NCBI GenBank assembly: GCA_027492035.1
Contig: JAOZFT010000032.1
Span: 7,170 to 71,169 of the forward strand
Reading direction: 5' to 3'
DNA from: Thermoproteota archaeon
Lineage (GTDB): Archaea; Korarchaeota; JAOZGF01; JAOZFZ01
DNA length: 64,000 bases
Both the position numbers and the translations under genes were made by a program. This document shows positions 22,412 through 57,980 of this stretch, in pieces (the stretch's first letter is position 1; each line of letters begins with the position of its first letter). The notes under the pieces are model-generated. The model had not been told where the DNA came from. It ran no database searches and saw only the letters and a list, made by a program, of their open reading frames with translations.

Positions 22412-22456
22412 AGGGAGAAAGAAGCTTTCTTTAACCTCTTCAATCCATTTTCTTTG

Positions 22457-22807: not shown

Positions 22808-22810
22808 TTC

Positions 22811-25885: not shown

Positions 25886-25901
25886 AAAAGGGTGAAAGAT
25901 A

Positions 25902-27715: not shown

Positions 27716-27766
27716 AACCCATCCCTTATTCTTTTTTGCCTACAAAAATATGCGAAAGACCGATTT

Positions 27767-28729: not shown

Positions 28730-28905
28730 AACATTTATCTTTTTTCAGGGAGGAAAAGTAAACATTTAAAAATGAAGCCTTTCCTGTGAAAGGGTATTAC
28801 CCATACTCCCCTACAATTCCTTTAATGAATGTCTCAGGGGGAAAACATGTTAAAGAACTGTTTTTCTTATTCTGAAAAGGGTGAAGTAATGCAGGTGAAA
28901 TTTAT

Positions 28906-31290: not shown

Positions 31291-31302
31291 AGGTGAAGAA
31301 AA

Positions 31303-32184: not shown

Positions 32185-32657
32185 AAATGCCAAGAAAAAT
32201 CACCTTCACCGTGAATGGTGTGAAAAAACAGGTGGAGGTTAAGGATAATGAGTTGTTGGCTGATGTTTTAAGAGATAAGCTTCAACTTACAGGTGTAAAG
32301 CAGGCATGTTGGAGAGGGGAATGTGGACTTTGCACAGTACTCCTTAACGGTAAACCTGTTAAATCATGCCTTATCTTAGCTGTTGAAGCAAACGGGGCTG
32401 AAATAGTTACCAGTGAAGGATTAATGGAGGGTGACAAACTATCCCATCTACAAAAGTCATTTGTTGAAAACGGAGCTCTTCAATGTGGTTTCTGCACACC
32501 AGCTTTCACATTGGTAACTCATTATTTACTGACTCAAAAACCTGACGCGTCAGAAGAAGAAATAAGGGAATATATTAGTGGCTTAATTTGTAGGTGTGGA
32601 ACCTATAATGAAATAGTGAAAGCTGTGAAACAGGCTTCTCAATACTACAAAAAATAA
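32181..32657 (+). CDS. Molybdenum hydroxylase [2Fe-2S] small subunit (CoxS/XdhC-like)
   Basis: 158 aa; plant-type 2Fe-2S motif CWRGECGLCTV and a second cluster motif CGFCTP...CRCGTY. Confidence 0.9.
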   Translation: MKMPRKITFTVNGVKKQVEVKDNELLADVLRDKLQLTGVKQACWRGECGLCTVLLNGKPVKSCLILAVEANGAEIVTSEGLMEGDKLSHLQKSFVENGALQCGFCTPAFTLVTHYLLTQKPDASEEEIREYISGLICRCGTYNEIVKAVKQASQYYKK

Positions 32658-32689
32658 GGAAATGAATTTCTTTTCCTCTTTTTCTTTCT

Positions 32690-32875
32690 TTAAAGGATTT
32701 TTGAAAGGATGTCCTTGTATTCTTTTTCTAGTTTAGGGGGCGGCTGCCAAGTGACGTGTACAGCCTTTATTTCTTGGTCAAGCAAGGCATTATAAAATAT
32801 TTCTATGCCTATGTTTATTACTTTTAATTCAGATTTAAATAACTCCATCACTTTCTCACTCATTCCTTTTTTCAC
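32690..32875 (-). CDS. Small hypothetical protein (61 aa)
   Basis: Short ORF 2 nt downstream of the fdrA-like gene on the same strand. No recognisable motif, so it may be spurious. Confidence 0.2.
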   Translation of the reverse strand: MKKGMSEKVMELFKSELKVINIGIEIFYNALLDQEIKAVHVTWQPPPKLEKEYKDILSKIL

Positions 32876-32877
32876 CT

Positions 32878-34500
32878 CTATTGTGGAAACAGGAAAGATT
32901 CATATGTTCTTTCTAATGTATCCTCTTTCATTCTCCCCTTCGATGCCACTGCTGAAGCTAATATAGCCATTAAAGCATTAGTTGGAAGAACTGTAACACC
33001 TAAACTTTCCAGTTTCTTTGTTTGGAGCGAAAGGTTTTGGGGGTCTCTATCCGTCCCGCATACATGGGCTAAAATAGCTAAGTACCTTCCGTTTTTTTCA
33101 GCTGTTTCTTTTGCTTTCCTTATAGCTTCTGTATGGGCTTCAGCTGGGTCTGAATGTGAACCGTAACCTAGAACGAAATCAAGGAGTATAACAGCAACTT
33201 CTGGGTCCTTTGCCTCTTCTATCAACCTTAAATTCCTAATCGTCGGGTCAATCATCGGATGAGCTCTGCCTATGGTGAACTCTTCCTCCCCTAAATCAAC
33301 TACTGTGTGTTGAAAACTTTTGTAAGGGTTTTTTAATCCAAGCCTAGGTTCTAGGGGTGCATTGGAGTAAACGTCTCCCAAAGTTTCTTTTAAGATAATA
33401 AGTGACTCATACGTTAATGTTCCCCCTGTAAAAAGTCCCCTTATGTATTTCTGTTTTTCTTCAAATTGAGAATAAAGCTTTTCACTTTTCCTTAACAACT
33501 CCTCTGCAGGTATTGAAATCTTCTTTTCTGCCTCTTTGAAAAGTTTTTCGTCAAGGAGTCTTACCGACTCTAAAGCTGCTGCATGTAACGTTCTTGTTTG
33601 GACAAGTCTTTCCTTAAGTTGATTGGGTACTTCAAAAACTTTCCCGCCCATGAAACAGGTAACATATTTCTTTTTTGTGTTGTATGTTATATAATCAAGT
33701 ATTTTTTTCTGAACTTCGGGATCTGGTGGTTTAGCCACTAGAGTTACTACTTTTGTTTCGGTATCTTTCTCTAAAGCCTTTATTGACTCTAAAGCCATTA
33801 TTCCCCCCACTTTCTTTTTAACATCTCCTCCACCTATTCCTATTCCCTGTGAAACACCTGAACCGGCTACAGTTATTAAAACACTTACCTCCTGTAAACC
33901 TGTTCCAGCTGCTGCAACTATGCCTATTGGTCCCTTATTTACTACGTTAGCGAAAGCTATTGCTTTGTTATTTATTATTGAGGTGCCTGCAGCAGCCCCC
34001 ATTACAAGGAGACCCCTCTCCTTTGCGTATTCCTTTATTTCAAGTTCATCCTCAATGGGTACATGGTCACTGAATAAGTGCACGTGAATTCCTCTATCTA
34101 AAAGTTTCAGCGTTATTTCTTTAGCGTATTCCCCTGGGACGGAAACGATTGCTAAATTAGCATCAGGTAATGCCTCTAATGCAGTTTCTAAGCTGTAAAA
34201 GTATTGTCCAGCTTTTGGAGGCTTAGTTAGCATTTTTTCAATTGTTTCAACAGCCTTATTTATTATTTCTTCAGTTGATGCGGAAACAGCTATTACCATG
34301 TCGCTTTCTCCAGCTATTTTCCCTTCCTCAACCAATAAACCTAGTTTTTCCAGTATTTCCTTGTTTGTTTTTGTACCCATAACTACAGCTGCATCCATTA
34401 CTCCCTCTATTTTTTTAGCTTGTTCTGACAAATGGAGGAGCTGTAAAGAGTCCCTATAAAAATTCTTCTTCACCACATTTTTTACAGGCAAATTTATCAC
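32878..34500 (-). CDS. FdrA-like acyl-CoA synthetase-fold protein (AllF-like)
   Basis: 540 aa with a succinyl-CoA-synthetase-alpha-like CoA-binding/ligase architecture, as in E. coli FdrA. It neighbours carbamate kinase. Confidence 0.6.
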   Translation of the reverse strand: MINLPVKNVVKKNFYRDSLQLLHLSEQAKKIEGVMDAAVVMGTKTNKEILEKLGLLVEEGKIAGESDMVIAVSASTEEIINKAVETIEKMLTKPPKAGQYFYSLETALEALPDANLAIVSVPGEYAKEITLKLLDRGIHVHLFSDHVPIEDELEIKEYAKERGLLVMGAAAGTSIINNKAIAFANVVNKGPIGIVAAAGTGLQEVSVLITVAGSGVSQGIGIGGGDVKKKVGGIMALESIKALEKDTETKVVTLVAKPPDPEVQKKILDYITYNTKKKYVTCFMGGKVFEVPNQLKERLVQTRTLHAAALESVRLLDEKLFKEAEKKISIPAEELLRKSEKLYSQFEEKQKYIRGLFTGGTLTYESLIILKETLGDVYSNAPLEPRLGLKNPYKSFQHTVVDLGEEEFTIGRAHPMIDPTIRNLRLIEEAKDPEVAVILLDFVLGYGSHSDPAEAHTEAIRKAKETAEKNGRYLAILAHVCGTDRDPQNLSLQTKKLESLGVTVLPTNALMAILASAVASKGRMKEDTLERTYESFLFPQ

Positions 34501-34546
34501 CTAAATTTTTAATTCTATTTCTCCTTCTTTGTTTCCAAGAGTTTAC

Positions 34547-35506
34547 TCATTTATTTTTGTATATTAAGGTCCCTGTTTTTCCATCTAAAGCGTCAACCGC
34601 TTTATTTAACGAGGTAATTATCGCCTTTTTCCCCCCAAACTCCAGAAACCTTATGCAAGCCTTTACTTTCGGCCCCATACTTCCAGCCAAGAAATGGCCC
34701 TCCTCTAAATATTTTTTGGCTTCTTCAATAGACATTGTGTCAATGTCTTTCTCGTTTGGTTTTCCATAGTTCAATTTAGCTTTTTCTACATCCGTCAAGA
34801 TAAGGAAAATGTCGGGTTTCACCACTTCAGCTAGTCTCTCCCCTGCTAAATCTTTATCTATCACTGCTTCAACTCCCTTTAATGAGCCATCCTTCTGCGA
34901 AACAACAGGTATTCCTCCGCCTCCTGAGGCTATAACTATTACCCCTGCATTAACTAGCCTCTTTATTGCTTCCCCCTCTATTGGACGTATAGGGTCAGGT
35001 GAAGGAACAACTCTCCGGTACACTCGTTCACCAGCAGGTTTCACTTTTCTAATGAAGTAATTTCTTTCTTTCTTCAATTCTTCAGCCTCTTCTAAAGTGT
35101 AAAACGGTCCAACGGGTTTATGTGGATCTTGGAAATCCGGATCGTCCTCTCTAACCAACACTTGTGTCACAATAGTTGCTACAGGAATGTTTATACCCTC
35201 TCTTTGTAAATAGTTTATTAATGTCTGTTGTAACATGTAACCTATTTGTCCTTGTGTCATAGCACCTAAGACATCTAAGGGTTGTGCAGGAACTTTACTT
35301 ACTCCCTCTTCCTGTTGGATAAGTAAGTTACCCACCTGAGGACCGTTTCCATGAGTAATAACTAAACCGTAGCCTCTTTTCACTATTTCAAGCAAGTGTT
35401 TACATGTTTCTCTAACGTTTCTAAACTGTTCTTCAGCTGTTCCTTTTTCATCGGCTTGTTTTATTGCGTTTCCTCCCAATGCAATAAGAATAACTTCTTT
35501 TTTCAT
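34547..35506 (-). CDS. arcC: Carbamate kinase
   Basis: 319 aa, amino-acid-kinase family; N-terminal ILIALGGNAI and C-terminal GGGGIPV motifs typical of carbamate kinase. Confidence 0.85.
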   Translation of the reverse strand: MKKEVILIALGGNAIKQADEKGTAEEQFRNVRETCKHLLEIVKRGYGLVITHGNGPQVGNLLIQQEEGVSKVPAQPLDVLGAMTQGQIGYMLQQTLINYLQREGINIPVATIVTQVLVREDDPDFQDPHKPVGPFYTLEEAEELKKERNYFIRKVKPAGERVYRRVVPSPDPIRPIEGEAIKRLVNAGVIVIASGGGGIPVVSQKDGSLKGVEAVIDKDLAGERLAEVVKPDIFLILTDVEKAKLNYGKPNEKDIDTMSIEEAKKYLEEGHFLAGSMGPKVKACIRFLEFGGKKAIITSLNKAVDALDGKTGTLIYKNK

Positions 35507-35638
35507 GTTATCAACCTTTGCAAAAGCGTTTTATCCTTATTTAGAAAGGATGTGAAATAAAGAATAAGGGAAAGCAGTAGTGCTTTTAAAAAATTTTTGC
35601 TTAATTTACCATTTTTCCAGCGTAGAATGTAAAATTCT

Positions 35639-36430
35639 TTATTTTCTTTTAAGAACAATCCCCGCTGGATCTATTTCTTCCCTCAAAACTTTTAATTCCT
35701 TTTCAGTTGGAGAAGGAGTTTGAGGTATCTTTTCCGGGATTATCAGTTCAAAGCTTGTATTTTCAACCACTTCCTTAACAGTTACTCCCGGGTGTAGTGA
35801 AAGTAATTTCATCCTTTTAGTTTCTTCATCGAAACCCATAACCCCTAACTGTGTAATTACTCTGTAAGGACCTGTATCTTCCGGTAAACCAGCTTTTTCC
35901 CTTTCACCTGGCCCTGTTAAATAACCTGGCGTAGTTATGAAATCTACCTTCTTCACGAATCTTTTCTTGTCCTGCCTCATAATAATGATGGTTTTCCATG
36001 CAAGGGAGCCTGCGTCATTAGCCCCACCACTACCAGGCAACCTAACCTTTGGTTTATCAATATCCCCTATCACTGTTGTGTTTATGTTCCCATACATATC
36101 TATTTGAGCGGCACCCAGGAAACCATAGTCAGCGTAACCAGCTTGTAAAAAGGACATTACATAATTCATTGAAGTAGCCATCACTGCCTTGTAGAAAGTT
36201 CTGGAGTCACCAACTGAAATAGGCAGGGTGGGAAGCTGAGGCCCTACTCCTCCTGCTTCAAAAATAATTAAGAGATGGGGTGCATGGGTTTTTTGGGCAA
36301 GTGAAGCTGCTATTATAGGTAAACCAGTGCCCACTAAAACTGATCTGTTATCTTTAAGCATTTTAGAAGCTGCGCAAGCCATTAATTCAATAGTAGAAAA
36401 TCCTCCTTTATCCCTTTCCACAACTCTCAC
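35639..36430 (-). CDS. 3-oxoacid/glutaconate CoA-transferase subunit B
   Basis: 263 aa with family I CoA-transferase beta-subunit features (LPGSGGANDAGS); overlaps the subunit A gene by 4 nt. Confidence 0.75.
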   Translation of the reverse strand: MRVVERDKGGFSTIELMACAASKMLKDNRSVLVGTGLPIIAASLAQKTHAPHLLIIFEAGGVGPQLPTLPISVGDSRTFYKAVMATSMNYVMSFLQAGYADYGFLGAAQIDMYGNINTTVIGDIDKPKVRLPGSGGANDAGSLAWKTIIIMRQDKKRFVKKVDFITTPGYLTGPGEREKAGLPEDTGPYRVITQLGVMGFDEETKRMKLLSLHPGVTVKEVVENTSFELIIPEKIPQTPSPTEKELKVLREEIDPAGIVLKRK

Positions 36431-39474: not shown

Positions 39475-40617
39475 GTGATTGAGAATAAAATAAAGGTTGG
39501 ATCTGCAGTCTTTATCTTTGTATTGGCAATAGTTCTAGCTGGATGCGTTGGTCAACCACCATCTCCAACTCCTACACCTACACCAACAGCAACTCCTACA
39601 CCTACACCAACTGTTTCACCAACAGCAACTCCGACTCCTAAACATCCAGAAATAAAAATTGCTCTCATCTTACCGGGTTCAATAACTGACAGAGGATGGG
39701 ATCAAGATCCTTACGAGGGTTTCATGCAAGCTAAGAAAGATTTCGGAATTACTGCTGAATACACTGAAGGGACAGACATCACAGGTACCGCTGAAGACTA
39801 CCCAAGGATAATAAGAGATTATTGTAGAAGAGGGTTCCAATTAATCATTGCACATGGATTCCAGTACAGAGACGCTGTAAAAGAAGCTGCTAAGGATTAT
39901 CCGAATGTTTGGTTCACTTTCGATGGTTCAGCTGAAGACATAACTAGCAATACTGCTCCGTGGATATCCCTAGGCCATGAACCAGCTTATTTAGCGGGCA
40001 TATTAGCTGCAAAAATGACAAAATCAAAAATTGTAGGCGTCTATAATGGAATGCCTGTACCTATTGAAGTCCCATGCATGGAGGCTTTCAAGGCAGGTGT
40101 ACACTCAGTTGACCCTAATATAAAAATATTGTCAACTTACATAGGTGTTTGGCATGACGTACAGAAGGGGTATGACACTGCTTCCTCAATGATTGATGCA
40201 GGAGCGGATGTAATCTATGGTATCGGAGACGGAATCAATGTCGGAGGCCAGCAGGCATGTAAAGAGAAAGGAGTTTGGTTCATTGGAGGAACAGGTGGTA
40301 TACATCAAGTAGAAGGAGCCCCTGATATAACCTTGGCCTCTGTCTCATGGGGACTCGACAGAGTAATTTATCACTTAGTTAAGATCTTTGTTGAAAACGG
40401 TAAATTAGAACCTAAATTCTACCAATACTCAATGCACACTACTATAACCGAGAAAGGCAAACGCGTAGGACCATACTTTGTCTGGAACATGGATTTAGTA
40501 AATAAAGGAGTTATTCCCAAAGACGTCTACAACCTCATAGAATCAACTAAAGAAGATATAATGAAAGGATTAGTCCAAGTTCCACTTGTCTTCACAGCCC
40601 CTGAGGCGCAGGGCTAA
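39475..40617 (+). CDS. BMP-family (basic membrane protein/PnrA-like) ABC substrate-binding lipoprotein
   Basis: Signal peptide with a lipobox-like LAGC, a Thr/Pro-rich linker (PPSPTPTPTPTATPTPTPTVSPTATPTPK), and a BMP-family periplasmic binding fold. Confidence 0.8.
   Translation: MIENKIKVGSAVFIFVLAIVLAGCVGQPPSPTPTPTPTATPTPTPTVSPTATPTPKHPEIKIALILPGSITDRGWDQDPYEGFMQAKKDFGITAEYTEGTDITGTAEDYPRIIRDYCRRGFQLIIAHGFQYRDAVKEAAKDYPNVWFTFDGSAEDITSNTAPWISLGHEPAYLAGILAAKMTKSKIVGVYNGMPVPIEVPCMEAFKAGVHSVDPNIKILSTYIGVWHDVQKGYDTASSMIDAGADVIYGIGDGINVGGQQACKEKGVWFIGGTGGIHQVEGAPDITLASVSWGLDRVIYHLVKIFVENGKLEPKFYQYSMHTTITEKGKRVGPYFVWNMDLVNKGVIPKDVYNLIESTKEDIMKGLVQVPLVFTAPEAQG
39554..39654 (+). repeat. Thr/Pro-rich low-complexity linker repeat inside the BMP lipoprotein gene
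   Basis: Repeated ACNCCN codons (cctacaccaaca...) encoding a TPTPTP tether. Confidence 0.6.
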
Positions 40618-40672
40618 CCCCTTCCCCTTTTTTCTTTATTTTTTAAATATAACGCAATGGAGGTCTTTTGCT

Positions 40673-41731
40673 GTGTACTTGGGAGGTGGACAGCGTTACA
40701 TACTCTGGAGAGTTATTTCGGTCATAATTTCACTTGCCATAGCTTTAGGTATAGCTTCCATTTTTATTGTAGCAGTGGGTGCTAACCCTTTAGTTGCTTT
40801 TTATGCTATATATGATGGCTCATTAAGCAATCCAGAAGGTATTTCTGAAACCTTAATTAAAGCAACTCCTTTAATTTTTACTTCTTTAGCTTGTGCGGTG
40901 GCTTTTAAGTCTAACATGTTGAACATAGGTGCTGAAGGACAAATGTATATAGGACAAGCAGTAGCTGCAGTTGCAGCCTTAACAATGCCTTTAAATTTAC
41001 CTATTTACCTTTTTATTCCCTATCTTATAGCAGTAAGTTTTATTGGCGGCGCAGCATGGGCAGCTATACCAGGATATTTAAAGTTGAAATTTGGGATAAG
41101 TGAAGTAGTAACTACTATGTTAATGAACTGGATCCCTATTTATTTAGTGGATTACTTGGTTTTTGGCCCGTTTTATGAAACAGAGCATATTCATCCTCAA
41201 ACAAATCCTATCCCTGAGGCAGCTAGGCTTCCGAGGCTTTTTCCAAGGTACAGAGTTCACGCAGGCATTTTCATAGCTGTAGCTACGGCTGTTATTCTTT
41301 ATTTCTTTTTGTGGAAGACTCATAAAGGGTTTGAGTTTAGAGCTACTGGAGCTAGTGTAACTGGGGCCAGGGCCATGGGTATTAACGTGAATAAGAGGCT
41401 GATGCAAGCTATGATAATAAGTGGGGGAATTGCTGGTTTAGCAGGTTTCTCAATTGTTTCAGGCACTTACCATAAGCTCAAACTTGGAACTACAGCCATC
41501 CTCGGACATGGTTATGCAGGTATACTAGTAGCCTTAGTAGCCAATAATCACCCCTTAGGAACCGCTGTTGCAGCGTTTATTTTTGCAGTCCTAATCATTG
41601 GCTCTGAAACCATGCAACGTGCAGCAGGAGTTCCTTTCCCGGTAATAAACATAGTAGAAGCGTTGCTAGTTTTAGCTGTTTTGTTAAGTGGGAGAATGTT
41701 TGAGTACTTGTCAAAGAAGGTGAAACTTTGA
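40673..41731 (+). CDS. ABC transporter permease (BMP/nucleoside-type), subunit 1
   Basis: Polytopic permease. The longest ORF starts at TTG 40586, inside the upstream gene. GTG 40673 is preceded by GGAGG and is the more plausible start. Confidence 0.75.
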   Translation: MYLGGGQRYILWRVISVIISLAIALGIASIFIVAVGANPLVAFYAIYDGSLSNPEGISETLIKATPLIFTSLACAVAFKSNMLNIGAEGQMYIGQAVAAVAALTMPLNLPIYLFIPYLIAVSFIGGAAWAAIPGYLKLKFGISEVVTTMLMNWIPIYLVDYLVFGPFYETEHIHPQTNPIPEAARLPRLFPRYRVHAGIFIAVATAVILYFFLWKTHKGFEFRATGASVTGARAMGINVNKRLMQAMIISGGIAGLAGFSIVSGTYHKLKLGTTAILGHGYAGILVALVANNHPLGTAVAAFIFAVLIIGSETMQRAAGVPFPVINIVEALLVLAVLLSGRMFEYLSKKVKL

Positions 41732-41732
41732 A

Positions 41733-42695
41733 ATGTTTCCATTAAGTGAAACAATTGCTAGTATAGTTGGGAGAGGAATAATGTTCGGTGCAGCTTTACT
41801 GCTAGCTTCCCTGGGAGAAATATTTGCCCAAAAATCAGGTTTCATGAATTTAGCCATGGAAGGATTAATGACGCTTGCAGCCTCCGTCTCTTACCAAGTT
41901 ATGTTTTTAACAGGTAATCCAGCTTTAGCTCTTGCAGCAGCAATGGCTAGCAGTATGGCCGTCTCGTTCATAAGTGTTTATCTCAACCAAAGATTTTACC
42001 TTGACCAAGTAGTTGCAGGCATGGCACTCTACATCTTCTCTTTCGGCCTAGGTGTTTATATCCATAGGGTTGTTTCTGGAGGAGTTACAGGCGTAAAATT
42101 TATTGAAGTACTTAAACCTATAAATATACCCTTACTATCTAATATTCCAATCCTAGGACCTATTCTTTTCAAACAAAACGTACTAGTCTACACGGCAATT
42201 ATTTTGTCTTTTATTGCTTACATAGTTTTATTCAGGACCAGTTGGGGCTTAACAGTTAGGGCGGTTGGGGAGAACCCTAAGGCTGCTGACAATGCCGGTA
42301 TAAACGTTTATAGGACAAGGTACTTAGCGACTCTACTTAGCGGGGCTGGTGCAGGTTTAGGTGGGGCATACATTGTCTTAGCAGTGCTAGGCAATTTCCA
42401 AGAACTTGTAGTTAGCGGAAGAGGATGGATAACCATTGCAATGGTTATTTTTTCGCAATGGAACCCCCTTTACGCAATAATAGGTTCCTTCTTTTTTGGT
42501 ACCATGGAGTCGGTGGCGAAATTCATGGAAATAACTAGAGAAATATCTATTACCGGAGGTATACCCTACCAGTTTTTCTGGATGATACCTTACATAGCCA
42601 GTATTTTAGCTTTAGTGGTAGCCTTTAAGAAAGCAGCTCTACCCTCTGCTTTGTTTAAAGTTTATAAAAGAGAAGAAGCTATAAGTGAAGTATAG
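41733..42695 (+). CDS. ABC transporter permease (BMP/nucleoside-type), subunit 2
   Basis: 320-aa polytopic permease immediately after permease 1. Confidence 0.75.
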   Translation: MFPLSETIASIVGRGIMFGAALLLASLGEIFAQKSGFMNLAMEGLMTLAASVSYQVMFLTGNPALALAAAMASSMAVSFISVYLNQRFYLDQVVAGMALYIFSFGLGVYIHRVVSGGVTGVKFIEVLKPINIPLLSNIPILGPILFKQNVLVYTAIILSFIAYIVLFRTSWGLTVRAVGENPKAADNAGINVYRTRYLATLLSGAGAGLGGAYIVLAVLGNFQELVVSGRGWITIAMVIFSQWNPLYAIIGSFFFGTMESVAKFMEITREISITGGIPYQFFWMIPYIASILALVVAFKKAALPSALFKVYKREEAISEV

Positions 42696-42813
42696 GATCC
42701 TCAGAGAGGCGATATTGAAATGGTTCCTTTTTTCTTCGGTACCTTTATTAATTGGAAAAAGGTTAAGTGTATTTTTGGTTTTTCGAAAATTTCAATATGT
42801 AAAAAATTTTTTG

Positions 42814-44418
42814 ATGGGGGAGCCATTAATGGGAAAACAATACACAAAGGGAGAAATCAGGGAAAAATTGACTAAATTAGAGATAGGAACCACCGTTCTG
42901 GAAATGAAAAACATAACTAAAACATTTCCAGGTGTTGTAGCGGATGACCATGTTAATTTCGAATTGAAGAAAGGTGAAATTCATGGCTTACTTGGGGAAA
43001 ATGGAGCAGGTAAAACAGTTCTTATGAGTGTTTTATATGGTCTCTACAAGCCTGATGAAGGCGAGATATGGTTAGCCGGTGAAAAAGTTGACATAAAATC
43101 CCCTAAAGACGCTATAGAGCTGGGTATTTCAATGGTTCATCAAAGGTTTGCGTTAGTTAAAAACATTACTGCTTTAGAGAACATAATTCTTGGAACTCAA
43201 TCCTCCAAGAAATTCTTTCTTGATGAGAAAGAGGCCGAGGAAAAAGTAAAGAAACTTTCAGAAAAATTCGGGTTGGAAGTGAAACTAAACTCTTTAGTAA
43301 TGGATTTATCAATGGGTGAAAGGCAGAAAGTTGAAATTTTAAAAGCTCTCTACCGTGGCTCAAACATTTTAATACTTGATGAACCCACAACCATGATTAC
43401 CCCTCAAGAAATCGATTCATTATTTGAAACATTAAGGAAAATGGTTAAGGAAGGGCTATCCATCGTGTTTATCTCCCACAAAATACCTGTTGTCCTAAGA
43501 GTAACTGACAGAATAACTATTTTAAGAAACGGGAGAGTGATAACTACTGTAAAAACAAGTGAAACAAATGAAAGGGACCTAGCAGTGAAAATGGTTGGGA
43601 GGGAAGTTCTTTACAGGCTTCCAAAAGTTAAAAGAGAAAGAGGTGAAAGAATTTTGCACATAGAAAATCTTTGGGCCCCTGGCGAAGAGGAAGGAGTTCC
43701 TGTTCTAAAAAGCATTTCCTTCTCCGTCCATAAAGGTGAAATTCTAGGAATAGCGGGAGTAGCAGGTAACGGGCAGAAAGAACTGGTTGAGTGTATCTTG
43801 GGGCTTAGGAAAGTAAGTAAAGGGAAAATTTTCCTAAACGGGAAAGATTACACTAACAAATTTACAAGAGAAATATATGAAGCAGGAGTTGCTTGGATAC
43901 CTGACGAAAAAGACAGGGGAGCAATTCTTGGTTTATCAGTTGCTGAAAATTTAGTTATGAAAAAATTCTATAAACCACCCTTCTCTAAAGGATTAATGTA
44001 TAATGAAAAGGAATCCTTAAGCTTCGCTGAAAAAATTGTAAAGGAGTACGGTGTCAAAACAGCGGGAGTTAAGGCTCCAGTTAGAACACTTTCAGGGGGG
44101 AACATCCAAAGATTAATTCTAGCACGTGAATTTTCAGCAAACCCTAAACTATTGATAGCTTTCAACCCAACCCAAGGCTTAGATGTCAACGCTACGGAAT
44201 TCACTAGAAGAAAAATACTTGAATTGAGGGAAAAGGGATCAGGGGTGCTTCTTGTTTCAATGGACCTGGACGAAGTTATGATGTTAAGTGACAGAATAGC
44301 GGTAATGTATAAGGGGGAGATAGTAGGTATAATTGATGCAGCTAAAGCTGAAAGATACGAATTAGGTTTAATGATGGCTGGATCCAAACGTTTAGAATCA
44401 AGCAACTGGGCCAGCTAA
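42814..44418 (+). CDS. ABC transporter ATPase with duplicated nucleotide-binding domains
   Basis: Two Walker A sites (GENGAGKTV and GVAGNGQKE) and two ABC signatures (LSMGERQK; LSGGNIQR). I chose the ATG at 42814 rather than the overlapping longest ORF. Confidence 0.8.
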   Translation: MGEPLMGKQYTKGEIREKLTKLEIGTTVLEMKNITKTFPGVVADDHVNFELKKGEIHGLLGENGAGKTVLMSVLYGLYKPDEGEIWLAGEKVDIKSPKDAIELGISMVHQRFALVKNITALENIILGTQSSKKFFLDEKEAEEKVKKLSEKFGLEVKLNSLVMDLSMGERQKVEILKALYRGSNILILDEPTTMITPQEIDSLFETLRKMVKEGLSIVFISHKIPVVLRVTDRITILRNGRVITTVKTSETNERDLAVKMVGREVLYRLPKVKRERGERILHIENLWAPGEEEGVPVLKSISFSVHKGEILGIAGVAGNGQKELVECILGLRKVSKGKIFLNGKDYTNKFTREIYEAGVAWIPDEKDRGAILGLSVAENLVMKKFYKPPFSKGLMYNEKESLSFAEKIVKEYGVKTAGVKAPVRTLSGGNIQRLILAREFSANPKLLIAFNPTQGLDVNATEFTRRKILELREKGSGVLLVSMDLDEVMMLSDRIAVMYKGEIVGIIDAAKAERYELGLMMAGSKRLESSNWAS

Positions 44419-44540: not shown

Positions 44541-46241
44541 ATGAAATATTCCCTAGTTTTAACAATTTACTTGCCTTTACTCTTGATTTTTCTGTTTTCT
44601 TTCACTTCTAACATCCGCTGCTTAAACTCCTATGACCTTAACCCTCAGAACCCTTTAGAAGCTAAGAGTGACAAATGTTTCTCTTTAACTCTCCCACTTC
44701 AAGGTTCACGGTTTCAGAAGGGGACAAGTCTAAACCATAACCTATCAAGTAACTTAACTCCCCAAATCCAGTTAGAAGTTTTACCTCATTACCAAACAGC
44801 CAGATTTAAGAGTTTTGTGTCTTATCTCCTCCTTATTAAAGTAATTAATGTGACCAAAAATGTAACTATACATCTTAAAGTAAGTGGTTTACCTTTTGAA
44901 ATGAATCCCACCTTTGGAGAAACACGTTACTTGTCAAAGAATTCTGCAACTGTTGAATTGTTGCTCTACTCAGGTAAAAAGGAAGGAGTTTACTCCTTCA
45001 ACGTTACGGCTTCAGCTCCTAACACAAGTAAGGGCTTCTGTAATGTTCAATTGCGGGTAGTTAATATAGAAAAAGACTTTTCTCTTCCCCTAAATAGATA
45101 CAATGCTAAGGTAGTGCCTGGAGGCAATCTCATCTTTTCAGTTTATATAAATCCTATAAATGGATATAATAGACTTGTCGCTTTAAGCTGTCCAAATTTA
45201 CCTGAAGGGTTTAAAATAAAATTCACGCCTTCAAAGGCGTATCCGTCTTACAATGTCCAAATTAATTTATCAATACCCGAAAATGTTAAGCCTCAGGAAA
45301 AGATTTTTGTTATAGAGGGTGAAGACAACCAAGGGTTGCATCATGCCTCAATTTTCAGGTTAGGAATTCTTGAACCTGGTTCAATAGATTTCAAACTGAA
45401 AATCAAACCAGAGAAAGGAAGTGTTCTCCAAGGTGGGAAAATATATTTTAAAGTCGAAGTAATCAATTTGACACAGGAAAAAGATAAAGTTTTTCTTTTT
45501 GTTAAAGGCATCCCAAACGACACCTTGTACGGGTTTGGGGAAGATGAACTTGAACCTCCGGGTGAATCAGATCTTGTTATTCAAGCAGGAAACATAACAG
45601 GTACTTACCTTTTCACAGTCTATGGTGTGGGGGGAGGTTTAAAAAGAATAACTCATGCAACCCTTACAATCAAAAAGAAAGAATGCTTTATAGCTACAGC
45701 CACTTTTAATTCAGAAGTTTCAGATGAAGTCAATACTTTAAGAAAATTCAGAGACAGCCTGATACTTAAAACCTACACTGGAACCCTGTTTTACAAAGTG
45801 TTTGATGAAATTTATTACGCATTCAGTCCACAAATAGCTGAACAGGAGAAGGTTAATCCCTCTCTCCAACTCTTTTTCAAATTCACACTTTATCCATTAA
45901 TCTACACCCTGAAACTAGCAACTTTTGTCTCTGAACCACTTTCTTACATAAACTTGGAAGCAGCCGCCTTAACAGCGGGGGCAATAGCCTCTTTTTTGCT
46001 AGGCTTCATTTATATAAGCCCCCTTATCTTCATCGTTTCTAAAATGGTTGGGGGAAAAGTTAAGTTCTGGGAAGAAATAAAAGTCTTTTTACTCCTTTTC
46101 TTAATCTCTTCTATGTCAATAATGGTAGGGGTTATCTTTAGGGAAAACAATTTAACAACATTCTTCATCTTCAGTTACATCATGTCCTTCCTTTACTTAG
46201 GTACCGTATCTGCTCTAAACTTTCTAAATAAGTTCTTTTAA
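44541..46241 (+). CDS. Secreted/membrane-anchored protein with a C-terminal CFIATAT...LRKFRD module plus TM tail
   Basis: N-terminal signal/TM; the motif KKECFIATATFNSEVSDEVNTLRKFRDSLIL at 45675-45764 is followed by about 160 aa with 3-4 TM helices. Confidence 0.6.
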   Translation: MKYSLVLTIYLPLLLIFLFSFTSNIRCLNSYDLNPQNPLEAKSDKCFSLTLPLQGSRFQKGTSLNHNLSSNLTPQIQLEVLPHYQTARFKSFVSYLLLIKVINVTKNVTIHLKVSGLPFEMNPTFGETRYLSKNSATVELLLYSGKKEGVYSFNVTASAPNTSKGFCNVQLRVVNIEKDFSLPLNRYNAKVVPGGNLIFSVYINPINGYNRLVALSCPNLPEGFKIKFTPSKAYPSYNVQINLSIPENVKPQEKIFVIEGEDNQGLHHASIFRLGILEPGSIDFKLKIKPEKGSVLQGGKIYFKVEVINLTQEKDKVFLFVKGIPNDTLYGFGEDELEPPGESDLVIQAGNITGTYLFTVYGVGGGLKRITHATLTIKKKECFIATATFNSEVSDEVNTLRKFRDSLILKTYTGTLFYKVFDEIYYAFSPQIAEQEKVNPSLQLFFKFTLYPLIYTLKLATFVSEPLSYINLEAAALTAGAIASFLLGFIYISPLIFIVSKMVGGKVKFWEEIKVFLLLFLISSMSIMVGVIFRENNLTTFFIFSYIMSFLYLGTVSALNFLNKFF

Positions 46242-50941: not shown

Positions 50942-51913
50942 TTAATGGATGTATTGTTGAAGTGTTCTAAGTCTTTTCACTATGTTGGGATGCGTAGAAA
51001 ACATTTCTGACACTTTATCCAGCCAAGTCAATTTCCTACTGGCTATCTCTTCCACTGCTCCCCATTCTCTCCTCAAGTTTGAAGCTTTAATATATGCTGA
51101 ATCCTTTATTGATGTGTCAGGGTCCGTTATGAACAGAGTTTTAAATGCATGCACTCCTCCTTTGTTTCTTGAGTAACTTTTCAAATTGCTCGTTGTGTTA
51201 ACTATTTTAGCTAAGGCTGTTGAAAGCTTCTCTGCTCCATTATGAACTACCTGTACACTGTGACGGTCTGCATAGTATTCCCTCAACCTGCTGAAGTAAA
51301 GGACAAACAACGTAAGTATCCAATAGAAAACGTAGGAGACTGCACCTATAGCCATTGTTAACGCTCCTGCCTCTTCCCCCTCTCTTGAATCCGAAAACAT
51401 GCTTGAATAAAGCAGGGTCATACCTATATAATAGAATATGGAGGGCAGGACTGAAACAAACATCATAGTTTGTGCATCTCTATGGGTCAAATGCCCAATT
51501 TCATGGCCTAGGACAGCTTCTACCTCGTCCATGTTGAGGGTTTGTAGGAGCCCTCTCGTTACAGCCACTCTATAACCCGTTAGTGGTGAGCCATAAGCGA
51601 AAGCATTTGGGATATTTGTTTCAGCTATCATTAGTTTGGGAGTTTTTATTCCGCTTTTATGACTTAGGTCTTTCACTACTTCATGAAGTTCAGGGGCTTC
51701 GTTGTAACTTAATGGTTTAACGCGGTAAACTAAATCTACTATATAGGGAGCTATTAACCACTGGATGAAGTTGAAAATTATTACGAACCCGAGTAGGAAG
51801 TAGAGATTTGTTACCCCAAGTAAATTCATCAGGAACACTCCGAAAAGTGTTGATAACCCAATTATTAAGGCCAATGTCGTAAACATTGAAATTTTCAGTT
51901 TCCATATCTTCAT
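50942..51913 (-). CDS. htpX: HtpX-like M48 zinc metalloprotease
   Basis: HEIGHLTHRD (HExxH) and TM helices both N-terminal to and following the motif; 323 aa. Confidence 0.8.
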   Translation of the reverse strand: MKIWKLKISMFTTLALIIGLSTLFGVFLMNLLGVTNLYFLLGFVIIFNFIQWLIAPYIVDLVYRVKPLSYNEAPELHEVVKDLSHKSGIKTPKLMIAETNIPNAFAYGSPLTGYRVAVTRGLLQTLNMDEVEAVLGHEIGHLTHRDAQTMMFVSVLPSIFYYIGMTLLYSSMFSDSREGEEAGALTMAIGAVSYVFYWILTLFVLYFSRLREYYADRHSVQVVHNGAEKLSTALAKIVNTTSNLKSYSRNKGGVHAFKTLFITDPDTSIKDSAYIKASNLRREWGAVEEIASRKLTWLDKVSEMFSTHPNIVKRLRTLQQYIH

Positions 51914-52099: not shown

Positions 52100-55000
52100 T
52101 TAAGCCTTCTCCTCCACTGGAAAAACTGTTTTGTTGGGGCCTTGCCTAAGAAATAACTTTAGAATATGAGGTGTAGTTAAAGCTGTGAAAGCGATGAAAG
52201 AAATAATTAGGAGAGTGGCTGAGATCATTGCTAGGGTGCTGTTATGCAAAATCTCGCTCATTGTTAAAAGTAACAATGGAGTTACTGTAAGCAAAGTTTT
52301 ATTTAAGAGTTTCTTTTTATTTTTTAATTGAATTTTCTCTCTTTCGCTTCTACATTCCTCAGCTCCTTTCCTTTCCTTCCATTCCTTATGAATACTCAGT
52401 GGTAAACCTAAGTAGGTGAAACCTAGTAACATACTTACAATTAATCCTGCCGTTATGGACCCAATTTCTTTGTTTATTTTGAAGATTGGAAGTGTCAGGG
52501 TTGCTGCTGCATGTAGGGAGCCTATTAATGGGTAGAGGATTGTTTTAAATATTGGTTTGGTTTGTGGGTGTTTGTAAATGAAATCTGCAACGTACGGACT
52601 GAATGAATAATAGAAAAGGTTAAACGCTCTATAGAAATTCTTTCCAATGAAGGAAGAAAGAATGAAACGGTTCCTGAATTTCCTTAGGAAAATAACTTCT
52701 GGAGATAATTCTGAACCGTAAGTGGCTGTTGCTATGAAACATTTCCTTTTTTCGACCATTAACTTGATTGTTTTCTTATGTGTAACACCTCCTCCTGAAG
52801 CTTTAATACTCACCAAGAAATATCCTGTAGTGGTTCCTGTTTTGATTGTTAGGTTAGCTGTTTCTCCTGTTTTTAAGTTCTTAGGTATCAATTTATAACT
52901 AGCATCTTCAGGTAAACCTGTAATCTCCAGTTTTATCGTTTGAGGCTGCCCCTTAACAAGAGAAACTTTAACTGTTATGTATGTTTTCTCTCCCTCCTCG
53001 ATTTTCACTTCCTCAGGTTCAACTCTTAATTTAAAGTCAAAACCTGTGGAAGGGTGCTTCTTTTTTTCAGTGACATGTAAAGTCAAGGTGCAGCTGTGTA
53101 TTTTGTTATCTGTCCCTGTTGCCTTCACCATTAACTTGTAAGTTCCCGACGGACATGAATCGGACACTGTAATTTTCATTTCGGAGTTGAAATTAGGCTT
53201 AGCCTGGGAAGGGTTAAACTTTACCCCTATATTCACTGGCGGAGTTGAACAACTCAATGTCACGTTATTGCTGTAACCTGATGTAGAAGTAACTGAAACA
53301 GCTAATGTTAATGATTCCCCTGGCACTATTTCGATGTCTTTTTTATTTAACGCTATATTGAAGTCTCTAACTGGTTTTTCCTGAATTATTAACACGGCAG
53401 GTGCGCTGCGGATTAAATCTCCACTTGAAACATTAATTGTTAATTCGTAGTTTCCAACAGTGTTCCCTGCTTGAATGTTTACTTTAATTTTTTTGCTTCC
53501 ACCTGTACCGTTTTCAGGCGGAGATACTTGGTAATAGGTGTCTGAAGGCAGGTTTAGGACAGTGACTGCTACTGTTTGGATTGTGAACGAACCTGTAGGA
53601 GTTAAGGTTAGGGTGTAGCTTGTGTTTCCGCCTTGGTAAACTACTCTCGTTGGAGGATTAATCAATAACTGGAAACCTGGTGCTTCTCCCCTTATTACTA
53701 ATGTTTCATTTACAGGATTTGACCATGCTCCTTTGTTATCTTTCACTTTAAAGGTTATTGTGTGGTTGCCTGGTGATAAGTTAGAAATAGAAAAAATAGC
53801 TTGGTTGCTTAGGTGCCCGTCTATGTTTGAGTCCCAACTGTAGCCTGTAATTGCCCCATCTGGGTCTGAACCATGTCCTGTAAAGGTTACAGTATCACTT
53901 ACATTTGCTGGGTTAGGGGTTATTGAGTCAATAAATGCAACAGGTGGTTGATTAGCTGTACTTACTACTTGAACTGGAACCACAACATATTCAGACCATG
54001 CTCCTTCATTATCTTGAACCCTTAAAGTTATGTTAAACGTGGCAGGGAGTGAATAAGTATGATTAATTGTTTTTGAAATGTTGTTCCCGATTAAATTGCC
54101 TGTAACAAGTGGGGAGCCATCTCCCCAAGCTATTTCATATTTTGTGACGTTTCCATCTGGGTCAAACCCTGCGAAACTGAATACGATTTCCTCACTTACA
54201 TTTACGGGTGCAGTTGGATGCTCTAGAACTAAGGTGATAGGTGGTTTATTTCCTGAAATTCTTTGGTTGTAAGTATTGCTTGACCAAATCCAGTAATACA
54301 TTTTTTCGGTGTTAGAGGAGAAATTTAGGTAGTAAAGTTTGTTGGGGTCACCTGAATCTGTTATTTCTCCAATAGAGGGTACTTCAACAAGTGAATCCTT
54401 TACAAAATCAAATAGGTTAGCAACAGTTGCAGTTGTTAAGGTGGTGTAAAATAAGAAATTGTTTTTTTCGCAAGCGAAAATCCACCCTATTCTCCCTATG
54501 GAGGGATTAGCTACTGCTAGCATGAAAGGTTCTCCCGGTGGAAAAATAATAGAGTTGCTGTTTGGAGCCTTTACACTACCTTGACTGTAAGAGTTACGTG
54601 ACCAAATAGCGAAGTCAATATTTCCTTGGAGTGAGTGAATAAAAAGTGTATAAGGGTTTGTGCTGCTTCCTGAATCCTTAACTTCAGCTAGGCTAGTAAG
54701 ATTTATTAAGATGTCTTGGTTACTGTCGCCAATGTTTACAAATTGGGGGGACTCTTTACTTGAAGAAACAAGAATGTTACCGTGTTTAAAACAGAAAATC
54801 CATCCAGATTTATTTGAGGAGGGGTTTATAAGAGTTACAACGAAAAATTTTGAATCAGGGAAGGGCACTTGCACAAAACTTCCAGCTGAAACCGACCCTG
54901 AGAAATAAGAACCATAAAACCATACAAAGTAGTAAAGTGTCGAATTAAAAGCATATATCTCTAAAATAAGGGGCTGTGCCGGATTGCCTGAATCCCTAAC

Positions 55001-55285
55001 TCCACCTAAACCTGAAACATTTATTAAAACCTGTTTTGAAGTATCATTTAAGTAAGCGACATTAGTTGCTGTTAAAGGTGACGAAACTAAAATGTAATCC
55101 CTCTCTTTACTAAAAACTAGCCCTAGGCCTTCACCAGCTGAAAATCCTCCAATAAAAAACTTATTGCTTGGAAACTCGATTCCGCCAGTTAAAGCCTGAG
55201 AGAAAACAGGAGAAACATGTAATGACAAATCAGGAATCAAAATAAGTGAAAGGAGAAAAAGAATATTGTAAAATCTTTTCAACAT
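52100..55285 (-). CDS. Large secreted PKD-domain surface protein with a C-terminal CFIATAT...LRKFRN module plus TM tail
   Basis: Signal peptide; two PKD-like repeats (IAWGDGSP...HTYSLPATFNITLRVQDNEGAWS; ...HTITFKVKDNKGAWS); the motif KRKCFIATATYGSELSPEVIFLRKFRNRFIL (nt about 52660-52745), then a multi-TM C-terminus. Confidence 0.7.
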   Translation of the reverse strand: MLKRFYNILFLLSLILIPDLSLHVSPVFSQALTGGIEFPSNKFFIGGFSAGEGLGLVFSKERDYILVSSPLTATNVAYLNDTSKQVLINVSGLGGVRDSGNPAQPLILEIYAFNSTLYYFVWFYGSYFSGSVSAGSFVQVPFPDSKFFVVTLINPSSNKSGWIFCFKHGNILVSSSKESPQFVNIGDSNQDILINLTSLAEVKDSGSSTNPYTLFIHSLQGNIDFAIWSRNSYSQGSVKAPNSNSIIFPPGEPFMLAVANPSIGRIGWIFACEKNNFLFYTTLTTATVANLFDFVKDSLVEVPSIGEITDSGDPNKLYYLNFSSNTEKMYYWIWSSNTYNQRISGNKPPITLVLEHPTAPVNVSEEIVFSFAGFDPDGNVTKYEIAWGDGSPLVTGNLIGNNISKTINHTYSLPATFNITLRVQDNEGAWSEYVVVPVQVVSTANQPPVAFIDSITPNPANVSDTVTFTGHGSDPDGAITGYSWDSNIDGHLSNQAIFSISNLSPGNHTITFKVKDNKGAWSNPVNETLVIRGEAPGFQLLINPPTRVVYQGGNTSYTLTLTPTGSFTIQTVAVTVLNLPSDTYYQVSPPENGTGGSKKIKVNIQAGNTVGNYELTINVSSGDLIRSAPAVLIIQEKPVRDFNIALNKKDIEIVPGESLTLAVSVTSTSGYSNNVTLSCSTPPVNIGVKFNPSQAKPNFNSEMKITVSDSCPSGTYKLMVKATGTDNKIHSCTLTLHVTEKKKHPSTGFDFKLRVEPEEVKIEEGEKTYITVKVSLVKGQPQTIKLEITGLPEDASYKLIPKNLKTGETANLTIKTGTTTGYFLVSIKASGGGVTHKKTIKLMVEKRKCFIATATYGSELSPEVIFLRKFRNRFILSSFIGKNFYRAFNLFYYSFSPYVADFIYKHPQTKPIFKTILYPLIGSLHAAATLTLPIFKINKEIGSITAGLIVSMLLGFTYLGLPLSIHKEWKERKGAEECRSEREKIQLKNKKKLLNKTLLTVTPLLLLTMSEILHNSTLAMISATLLIISFIAFTALTTPHILKLFLRQGPNKTVFPVEEKA

Positions 55286-56123: not shown

Positions 56124-57980
56124 TCAGGTCTGTTTTTCTAGTTCTTTCTTAAGGAAACTTAAAATTATTTCTTCATTGTTCTCGGTTCCCACAAAAATTG
56201 GTATGTTTTTTCTTTTTGTTGCGGTATGGGAAATAAAAATCCACTCCCCTGGCTCCAGCTGAGAAGTTTTTTCAAGTATTTCTGGGCTAACTCCAGCTGC
56301 TTCTGCTACAACATGCCTATCATAGCTCCTAGGTAATGTTCCGGTAAAGTATGAATGAATCTGTTGGATAGCGTTTACGTTTAAATGGGCTACTCTTTGT
56401 GTAGCAACCCAGCAGTGTAAACGATACTTTCTTCCTTGCCTTAACAGTCTTTCCACTGCCTCATTTGATTGCCAAGTATAATCCTCCCTCCTCACCCTGT
56501 CAGGTATGAATTCCTGGGCTTCATCTATGACAACCAGTACTCTAGATCCTCTGCTAGTGTATTTTCTCAGCTTGAAAAGATTGCTTATTAACTTCTCAGT
56601 TAAAATTCTTGTTTTTAAAGGGTCAGGAGTATAAAGTATAAACAGTCTGCACTTTTCTTCCTCTACAGTTTTTATAGCTTCTAAAGCTATTTTTTCAGGG
56701 GTGTATTCTACTTCCTTAACTTTAGCAGATTCTGACGAGGTTGAATCTATAACCCTTACTACTTCTTCAATTACGTTAATTACTTTGTAAACTCTTTTCT
56801 TCTCTAGATCCGCTGCTTCTTCCTTAAGTACTTTCTTTATTTCATCTATTGCTTGAGATTTTTCCTTAAATACTTCACTTAATTCCTTGCTTGGATTTAT
56901 TCCTTCCTTTTCAAGTATGTTTTTCAGTTTTCCATAGATTTCTCTTGACCTAAACTTTGTTACTGGATGTAGATCATTAAACAAGCTTTCAAATGACTCA
57001 AGTACTTCTTTGAAACTCAACTTTTTACTTGTTAAATCTAAACGTTTTACTTTACTTTCTTTGAAAAGTTTTGTAACTTGATAAGCTATTTTCTGATAAA
57101 CCTCTTCTTCATTTTTTCCCAATTTTTCTAAAAAAGTTTCTGGTATAGCTTGTGAGGCAATGAAAGCACCAATAGGGTTTTCAGTCCCGAAATAATTCTC
57201 TGTTGAAAGAATTATTCCCTCCTCCAAAACCTTGTCCAGTAAGTTGAGGGAGTACTCGCCAGGTATGTCGATTACTATAACCTTTAAATCATCTAAGTTG
57301 TCCATCAACCTCCTTACCAGTAAAGATGTTAAATTGGATTTACCGGCTCCTGTAAAACCGAAAACTCCTACGTGGTGGCTTATAAGTTTAACAGGGTCAA
57401 CCTTTAAAGGGTGGTTAAACCCTGCCATGACCCCTATACTCATTCCGTTTTCGAAATTCACCAATTTATTAACAGCTTTAGTTGAAAGCAAAAAGGTTTC
57501 TGCCCCTACAAGAGGCATCATGGTTTCATCTCTGACGAAATCAACTCCTTTATTCCTTAAATCCATTAAGTAACCAGTGTAAACTGCATGTATATCTATC
57601 CATGTATCCTCTGTCTCACCCCACATTCTATATATTTTCTCTAGGAAATCAAGCCTTATTGGTTTAGGTAGAGAAATATCCATGGAAAGCTGTTGGTAAT
57701 GCATAGGGTTTGTGCTTACAACTTCATAAATTAAATATTTTTCTCTTTCCTTCATAGGCCTTTTTAAAGCTAAAAAACAAGGTTTCCTCAATCTGTCTAA
57801 AACTTCTAAGTTAAAAGAAGCCTCAAATGTTCCAACTATACTTTTTAAGGTGATTCTTCCTTCCTCTATAGAAGTCACTTTTATGTGGGTGCTTCTAAGT
57901 CTAGCTTTAAATTTTCCGTTTAAATCGTCAAGAAAGGGATTCCCTTCTTCTGAATTTTTCTCTTGCATGTTCAGCTTCAC
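56124..57980 (-). CDS. HerA/DUF87-family hexameric ATPase (HerA-like)
   Basis: Walker A GFTGAGKSN (about 57337-57360), Walker B VLVVIDEAQEF, and a sensor WVATQRV (TQR). An N-terminal region of about 200 aa precedes the ATPase core; 618 aa. Confidence 0.7.
   Translation of the reverse strand: MKLNMQEKNSEEGNPFLDDLNGKFKARLRSTHIKVTSIEEGRITLKSIVGTFEASFNLEVLDRLRKPCFLALKRPMKEREKYLIYEVVSTNPMHYQQLSMDISLPKPIRLDFLEKIYRMWGETEDTWIDIHAVYTGYLMDLRNKGVDFVRDETMMPLVGAETFLLSTKAVNKLVNFENGMSIGVMAGFNHPLKVDPVKLISHHVGVFGFTGAGKSNLTSLLVRRLMDNLDDLKVIVIDIPGEYSLNLLDKVLEEGIILSTENYFGTENPIGAFIASQAIPETFLEKLGKNEEEVYQKIAYQVTKLFKESKVKRLDLTSKKLSFKEVLESFESLFNDLHPVTKFRSREIYGKLKNILEKEGINPSKELSEVFKEKSQAIDEIKKVLKEEAADLEKKRVYKVINVIEEVVRVIDSTSSESAKVKEVEYTPEKIALEAIKTVEEEKCRLFILYTPDPLKTRILTEKLISNLFKLRKYTSRGSRVLVVIDEAQEFIPDRVRREDYTWQSNEAVERLLRQGRKYRLHCWVATQRVAHLNVNAIQQIHSYFTGTLPRSYDRHVVAEAAGVSPEILEKTSQLEPGEWIFISHTATKRKNIPIFVGTENNEEIILSFLKKELEKQT

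Follow-up and report, generated by a model that had tools for sequence, protein, structure and literature searches.

A CFI-box C-terminal module on two surface proteins of a Thermoproteota archaeon as a candidate polytopic membrane anchor

Two genes for large surface proteins on a 64,000-nucleotide stretch of contig JAOZFT010000032.1 from a Thermoproteota archaeon (hereafter the window) end in the same Cys-containing C-terminal module. Judged by their profile matches, both proteins are additional members of a domain family already catalogued by NCBI (NCBIfam NF041770, CFI_box_CTERM), not carriers of a new domain. The module fills the position of a C-terminal domain for anchoring or sorting: it is always C-terminal, stands behind many unrelated ectodomains and occurs as several paralogues per genome. 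Going by the alignments, what is conserved is no short signal but the whole module of about 190 residues, which begins at an invariant Cys and extends to the C-terminus. We lean towards reading it as a portable polytopic anchor that would be retained on the mature surface protein in the cytoplasmic membrane of Thermoproteota archaea; a sorting signal that is cleaved and attached to a lipid at the Cys is the less likely reading.

Copy 1, at 44541–46241 (+), encodes a 566-residue protein with an N-terminal hydrophobic, signal-like segment, immunoglobulin (Ig)-like repeats and then the CFI-box module; copy 2, at 52100–55285 (−), encodes a 1061-residue PKD-domain surface protein. Both stand in the open reading frame (ORF) list as an earlier, sequence-only reading of this DNA had described them. 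By eye, the N-terminus of copy 1 (MKYSLVLTIYLPLLLIFLFSF) is signal-peptide-like, and that of copy 2 is a hydrophobic segment of the same appearance. Pfam finds PKD_4/PKD matches at aa 357–521 of copy 2 and has no match in copy 1, whose identical 566-residue product is also encoded in the GenBank metagenome-assembled genome (MAG) GCA_027492235.1 (contig JAOZFM010000219.1). The shared Cys block that the sequence-only reading had picked out, C-F-I-A-T-A-T..LRKFR[DN], was recovered on both proteins by a motif scan and by the NF041770 matches, and in a six-frame scan of the whole window the patterns C[FILVM][IVL]A[TS]A and LRx[FY]R[DN] occur only in these two ORFs. The module begins at C382 in copy 1 (codon 45684–45686, +) and at C849 in copy 2 (codon 52741–52739, −), where it comprises aa 849–1061 (52103–52741, −) as placed by the NF041770 match, BLASTP and the motif scan; the region first remarked on, 45675–46241, runs from K379 through the stop codon of copy 1. 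To call the block near-identical was generous: the motif is shared and 19 of 28 residues from the Cys are the same by eye, but the count is 37 of 75 over the first 75 module residues, and identity over the module is 31% in protein and 52% in DNA. Because these values are low, the copies are, on their sequences, old paralogues with no recent duplication between them. Their ectodomains had been called otherwise unrelated, which has to be corrected: BLASTP aligns copy 1 aa 74–492 with copy 2 aa 536–959 (29% identity, E = 1e-57), and the two share about 310 residues of Ig-like repeats immediately N-terminal to the Cys (aa 74–381 of copy 1, 44760–45683, +, homologous to aa 536–848 of copy 2).

In hmmscan, NF041770 is matched by copy 1 with 64.4 bits (E = 6e-18, aa 382–454, 45684–45902, +) and by copy 2 with 72.9 bits (E = 1.4e-20, aa 849–921), each over all of the 69 model positions (1–69), where the curated cut-off is 40 bits; by score, these matches lie far beyond chance. 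CFIATAT, the signature motif of both copies, fits the Cys-[FIL]-I-A-T-A of the model, so that the archaeal CFI-box C-terminal domain half remembered in the sequence-only reading exists, with both proteins as members. All 75 sampled relatives (75/75) match the model as well, likewise over its 69 positions and above the cut-off. The proteins share with the catalogued family the invariant Cys, the [FIL]IATA[TA][YF]GS motif, the C-terminal placement and archaeal hosts, and differ in extent: the model covers only the first ~70 residues, from the CFI box as far as the first part of the second membrane helix, and ends about 110–140 residues before the protein end (112 further residues in copy 1, 140 in copy 2), whereas the conserved unit continues through those 110–140 residues and has mostly five helices, or three in Nitrosopumilaceae and some Bathyarchaeia. 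No Pfam model covers the module in the window proteins or the 75 relatives.

A search of 1.84 billion representative proteins (clusters at 50% identity) with a profile built from five tails (A2) gave 20,658 matches at E ≤ 1e-3, 6,831 at E ≤ 1e-10 and 793 at E ≤ 1e-30. Each of the 150 best matches (150/150) aligns to the whole profile of ~190 positions, and the alignment ends no more than a few residues from the C-terminus. Measured from the Cys, the protein ends after 180–213 residues in 69 of 69 locus-encoded members, and after 185 and 213 in copies 1 and 2. Word-index protein searches gave three relatives only for the 197-residue tail and, for a 54-residue CFI-box profile, only fragments of 48–94 residues that are mostly frameshifted or truncated gene calls with uninformative names. 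No free-standing module without an ectodomain was seen among the matches; the short ones look like truncated calls, because every one of them starts mid-domain without a signal peptide. At one Bathyarchaeia locus (L022), a single CFI gene is split into two overlapping ORFs (5986–6393 and 6341–8182, −; profile positions 8–87 and 94–193), which is a frameshift or a pseudogene, and many 48–94-residue CFI-box fragments on long contigs (P0153–P0202) look like similar broken gene calls.

Conservation, read from an alignment of 154 tails, starts abruptly. The Cys is present in 151 of the 151 members that reach its column, upstream of it no position is conserved, and the residue directly before it varies (G, K, R, P), Gly being the commonest (83/219). 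From the Cys, the CFI box and the helix after it follow the consensus C-x-I-A-T-A-T-[YF]-G-S-E-L-x-P-E-V-Q-F-L-R-x-F-R-D, and the first membrane helix follows T-x-A-G-x-x-F-M-x-x-F-N-x-[WF]-Y-Y-S-F-S-P-x-V-A. The later helices contribute L-Y-P-L, an invariant E473, G480, A-S-x-L-x-G-x-x-Y and, around position 531, a Glu that is conserved for the most part. Positions that vary little or not at all thus extend from the front part (C382, IATAT, GSE, V397, L400, R401, F403, R404, D405, T411, G414, F417) through the rest of the module (F421, N422, Y425, Y426, S427, S429, P430, Y451, P452, E473, G480, Y491).

AlphaFold2, run on a 35-sequence alignment of the module, returns a confident helix bundle (mean predicted local distance difference test, pLDDT, 94.2; predicted template modelling score, pTM, 0.86). 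In it a short helix covers FIATAT and is followed by an amphipathic helix H2 (aa 395–408, DEVNTLRKFRDSLI; 45723–45764, +; residues 22–35 of the model) and five long helices, in line with the FYxxF..YYxFSP segment and hydrophobic helices that had been noticed earlier. In H2, V397, L400, R401 and R404 are invariant and D405 nearly so. H3 (aa 412–438, 45774–45854, +; residues 39–65 of the model) is the first predicted membrane span and carries the G..F...FN..YYSFSP motif; the stretch matched by NF041770 consists of the CFI box, H2, H3 and the start of the second membrane helix. H4 and H5 (aa 440–470 and 472–503; 45858–46049, +), delimited by alignment, AlphaFold2 and charge counts, hold LYPL and the invariant E473, G480 and Y491, and H6 and H7 (aa 509–533 and 536–565; 46065–46235, +) are the pair missing in three-helix variants. 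In copy 2 the H5–H6 loop is longer and highly charged. Foldseek against the PDB found nothing similar (best E = 1.7, TM-score below 0.3), and a sequence profile gave no match to PDB chains.

The distribution of positive charge in the loops suggests how such a bundle would sit in the membrane. Family means of Lys plus Arg are 2.0 in the H3–H4 loop, 5.4 in the H5–H6 loop and 2.8 in the C-terminal tail, and 0.15–0.18 in the H4–H5 and H6–H7 loops. Because of this pattern and the exported ectodomain, the positive-inside rule fits five spans with the N-terminal side out and the C-terminus in. H3 would have to span the membrane, because only then does the charge distribution fit. With this predicted topology the CFI box, the amphipathic helix and E473 would lie on the outer face; for H2, that location is a prediction from the topology.

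Natural variants of the module point the same way. An hmmsearch over all ORFs of 80 genome loci plus the window counts 71 five-helix modules, 10 three-helix modules and two that lack the CFI box and Cys. The three-helix form ends after H5 with a basic cluster, so that H3–H5 are the retained core; it is carried by Nitrosopumilaceae (L039, L056, L066, L067, L069, L072, L074 and L078), whose copies have LRE[LI]RD in place of LRxFRD, and by two Bathyarchaeia (L045 15184–16227 and L060 11221–13494). The number of helices is odd in both forms (3 and 5), and these odd counts and basic ends, as read from the sequences, support the topology model. The two genes without the CFI box and Cys (L024 10386–12698, +, and L028 12341–14755, −) are surface paralogues that keep H4–H7, the former lying ~1.6 kb downstream of a canonical CFI gene, so the bundle can evidently persist without the Cys. 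Conversely, a divergent copy at L022 in which IATAT has decayed (NCPMSYATSGSEL) still has its Cys. A separate group of proteins (L044 4530–5594, +, and related ORFs in 19 loci) has Ig repeats like those of the window and a different C-terminal anchor, which combines a single transmembrane helix and an RRRRR cluster with a charged cytoplasmic tail that may form a coiled coil; one type of ectodomain is thus used with alternative anchors.

The module occurs widely across Thermoproteota (Bathyarchaeia, Nitrososphaeria, Thermofilaceae). A genome scan with one genome per species gave at least 569 confirmed loci, of which the best 80 were analysed and their taxa counted by hand: 47 are from Bathyarchaeia, 19 from Nitrososphaeria/Thaumarchaeota and nine from Thermofilaceae or other Thermoprotei, with one each from Methanomethylicota, Hecatellales and an unclassified archaeon and two on bacterial-labelled contigs. 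We do not claim a bacterial distribution. The two contigs in question (L029, labelled Candidatus Acidoferrum, and L053, labelled Methylomirabilota) probably represent archaeal DNA that was binned wrongly, because their CFI-box stretch is nearly identical to that of the Bathyarchaeia loci L022 and L049, and a further bacterial-labelled match (P0198, from a Deltaproteobacteria MAG) is an isolated 82-residue ORF that looks like a remnant. Several single MAGs supply two or three loci (CAYZRW01 with L034, L045 and L070; CAZLHM01 with L043, L059 and L073), and seven sources, the window included, have at least two module genes within ~20 kb. The ectodomains of 75 members contain 66 Pfam families, foremost Big_3_5, Filamin, CarboxypepD_reg, MG2, Big_1, beta-propellers and PKD; NCBIfam 'choice-of-anchor X' domains are found among them, as is a PGF-pre-PGF type ectodomain in one sampled protein. 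An N-terminal hydrophobic segment is present in 78 of 112 full-length members.

The dedicated sorting enzyme that had been imagined for these proteins did not turn up nearby. The 64-kb window, which otherwise encodes ordinary chromosomal functions, has no exosortase, archaeosortase, CPBP, rhomboid or other sortase-like gene, and no archaeosortase gene was found in the related loci examined. There is no conserved neighbour gene either, since any one family recurs in at most 8 of 67 loci, and what most often stands beside a CFI gene is another surface protein. One candidate was considered as the processing enzyme of copy 2 and set aside: a membrane metallopeptidase of the M48 family (HtpX/Ste24-type, with the HEIGH motif) is encoded at 50942–51913 (−), 186 bp downstream of copy 2 and on the same strand. 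A homologue lies near a CFI gene in two other loci only (L022 and L029), at about 4 kb, and because the adjacency recurs no further it is probably a coincidence.

Compared with known C-terminal sorting signals, the module has a family resemblance and lacks the defining form. Signals of the exosortase, archaeosortase and myxosortase type are short and tripartite, with a motif, one transmembrane helix and an Arg cluster, CGP-CTERM being 20 residues long (10.1101/2023.06.07.544157). Like these PEP-, PGF-, MYXO- and CGP-CTERM type signals, the module opens on a short signature motif (the CFI box with its invariant Cys), has a basic C-terminal end (the family mean of 2.8 given above; in copy 1, which ends in ...LNKFF with one Lys only, this cluster is weak) and is borne by many paralogues with diverse ectodomains, two of them in the window. 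With the Cys-containing kinds it shares the invariant Cys at the junction of ectodomain and membrane and the many secreted paralogues per genome (10.1101/2023.06.07.544157). The tripartite signals, however, span 20 to a few tens of residues with the transmembrane helix directly after the motif, whereas the module takes up 180–213 residues and its Cys is followed by ~30 residues of helix-forming, predicted extracellular sequence and then by three or five helices with conserved polar residues; and no cognate protease was identified in the window or the 67 loci. The likeness to a sorting signal proposed in the sequence-only reading therefore stands for the place that the module occupies and falls for the architecture of exosortase or archaeosortase targets. 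PGF-CTERM, the archaeosortase A signal of Euryarchaeota, is likewise an archaeal C-terminal element on surface (glyco)proteins; the CFI module is polytopic where PGF-CTERM is a single helix, has no PGF motif and belongs to Thermoproteota.

Two further comparisons are looser. The C-aliphatic-aliphatic-X pattern (CFIA, CIIA, CLIA, CVIA) and the M48 (Ste24/HtpX) gene beside copy 2 recall eukaryotic CaaX processing, in which the box forms the C-terminal tetrapeptide of a cytosolic protein and prenylation is followed by cleavage by Rce1 or Ste24. The CFI Cys lies 180–213 residues from the end and would be extracellular by the topology model, and the M48 adjacency is unconserved; the likeness is formal only. 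In outline, bacterial autotransporters also join a large conserved C-terminal membrane domain in cis to diverse surface 'passengers', but theirs is a beta-barrel in the outer membrane, whereas the CFI module is a helix bundle, predicted to lie in a single cytoplasmic membrane. There is no homology between the two, and a role in translocation is neither needed nor indicated for the module.

For the anchor that we favour, the following course may be envisaged. The N-terminal signal peptide would send the ectodomain across the membrane by Sec export, and the module would insert with its N-terminal side out and its C-terminus in, as a bundle of five helices (three in the shorter variant). The CFIATAT segment and the amphipathic helix (ELSPEVQFLRxFRD) would fold back and cap the outer face of the bundle, so that only a few residues would separate the last Ig-like domain from the membrane; the ectodomain would then stay attached through the polytopic anchor, with the invariant Cys at the outer membrane surface. 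This Cys is probably a site of covalent chemistry, be it a lipid thioether, a disulfide to a partner or a cleavage point. The topology, the cap, the permanent anchoring and the Cys chemistry are our inferences. An anchor retained on the mature protein would account better for the length of the module, the invariant residues deep in its helices, the three- and five-helix forms and the paralogues that keep the bundle without the Cys; a disposable signal would not need invariant residues throughout its helices.

Several observations weigh against this anchor. H3, the first of its spans, is weakly hydrophobic (mean hydropathy 0.33), and the proposed topology and cap come from a predicted model combined with charge counts. 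An invariant Cys that coincides with the domain boundary and has no conserved position before it in the alignment is what one would expect of a processing or attachment site, and other Cys-containing C-terminal signals have been proposed to be lipid-modified and cut (10.1101/2023.06.07.544157). The NCBI curators named the domain 'CTERM', as they do their sorting signals. A literature search by the CFI-box name and motif strings found no paper in the library searched, and so no published data on removal of the C-terminal segment from the mature protein. Sorting enzymes are usually encoded away from their substrates, and for this reason the lack of a conserved neighbour is weak evidence.

These points bear on a different account, in our view rather unlikely, in which the module is a sorting signal processed in trans: a lipid would first be attached to the Cys at the outer face, then a membrane protease (a CPBP/Rce1-like relative of 'myxosortase', an archaeosortase or an M48/Ste24-like enzyme) would cut at or after it, and the ectodomain would be held by the lipid while the helix bundle is discarded. 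The invariance of the Cys at the very start of conservation, the formally CaaX-shaped C-[FILV]-[IV]-A, the many paralogues per genome with 'choice-of-anchor' ectodomains and the M48 gene 186 bp from copy 2 all speak for it, as does the precedent of MYXO-, JDVT-, Synerg- and CGP-CTERM, signals with an invariant Cys for which Rce1-like proteases are the assigned enzymes (10.1101/2023.06.07.544157). Against it, a module of 180–213 residues with three or five helices is five to ten times longer than the described tripartite signals, strong conservation within the helices is unexpected of a segment to be thrown away, and Cys-less paralogues retain the bundle; nor do the surroundings help: the window lacks a gene for a CPBP, exosortase or rhomboid protein, no neighbour is conserved in more than 8 of 67 loci, and the M48 adjacency recurs in two other loci only, at ~4 kb. 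The absent partner, together with the strictly cis arrangement of module and 'substrate' and the lack of any free-standing module, would suit a self-processing module that needs no separate sortase. In such a scheme, which we hold to be very improbable, the bundle would act on its own X-Cys bond through an N-to-S acyl shift, as in Hedgehog proteins and inteins, and release the ectodomain or pass the new C-terminus (or the Cys thiol) to a membrane lipid or envelope polymer. The enzyme-like conservation of E, R, D, S, T, N and Y, many of them predicted near the outer face around the Cys, the Cys at the exact domain boundary and the frequent Gly before it (83/219) are in keeping with this; the scheme is purely inferential, however, the residue that precedes the Cys varies (G, K, R, P), the Foldseek and PDB profile searches gave no likeness to Hint or another autoprocessing fold, and here too the Cys-less paralogues stand in the way.

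It is also improbable, in our estimate, that the module is above all a docking or oligomerisation platform, whose bundle and cap would bind a common envelope or membrane partner or each other while the lone Cys forms an intermolecular disulfide, so that diverse surface proteins become organised in one envelope structure. A single invariant, predicted extracellular Cys without a conserved partner Cys in the module, one module common to many different ectodomains of one genome, and conserved polar residues in the helices, which are typical of specific helix–helix contacts, would all fit. No partner was identified, however, and the family is abundant both in strict anaerobes (Bathyarchaeia) and in aerobes (Nitrososphaeria), which argues against a disulfide as its general role. 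That the resemblance of the two tails is trivial, a generic hydrophobic tail limited to two paralogues or a recent duplication within the genome, had been raised at the outset and is refuted. The copies do share more than the tail, namely the Ig-like repeats at 29% identity; but the curated HMM (hidden Markov model) matches both, identity between their modules is no higher than 31% in protein and 52% in DNA, and the five-tail profile search places the module in 20,658 protein clusters (E ≤ 1e-3), behind unrelated ectodomains and C-terminal in all of the best 150.

Directly upstream of copy 1 in the window lies a BMP/PnrA-type ABC transporter operon (39475–44418, +) with a binding protein (lipobox-like LAGC, Pro/Thr-rich linker), two permeases and an ATPase; at a related MAG locus (L007 4518–10205), a CFI gene stands between the permeases and the ATPase of a like operon. 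The ATPase ORF at 42685–44418 (+) was given a mechanical GTG start and 577 residues, and this start is probably too far upstream, the GenBank call having 529 (L081 289–1878). Elsewhere, an ArsA/Get3-type ATPase gene (9442–10503, −) adjoins a complex-I-like cluster (878–9280), and a HerA–NurA DNA-end-resection gene pair occupies 56124–59748 (−). The region 18300–36430 is densely filled on both strands with metabolic genes: two methylmalonyl-CoA mutase large subunits and a B12-binding subunit, AllG/AllH oxamate carbamoyltransferase subunits, a molybdopterin (xanthine-dehydrogenase-type) enzyme, a CoA ligase and an amino-acid (carbamate-type) kinase, which suggests purine/ureide and propionate-type metabolism. 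Scans of the window for tRNAs and Rfam families found nothing.

As a finding, the module is mostly ordinary, since NCBI already models the domain family and uses it for naming. Its full extent of three or five helices is at odds with the tripartite-signal scheme that its name suggests, and the family is among the commonest C-terminal surface-protein modules of Bathyarchaeia and ammonia-oxidising Nitrososphaeria, whose cell envelopes are poorly understood. Self-processing, if true, would give archaea an equivalent of Hedgehog-type autoprocessing or of the autotransporter principle, with each protein bringing its own catalytic bundle. The family is a good experimental target: the fate of the Cys, whether lipidated, cross-linked or cleaved, would reveal how these abundant archaea attach their surface proteins.

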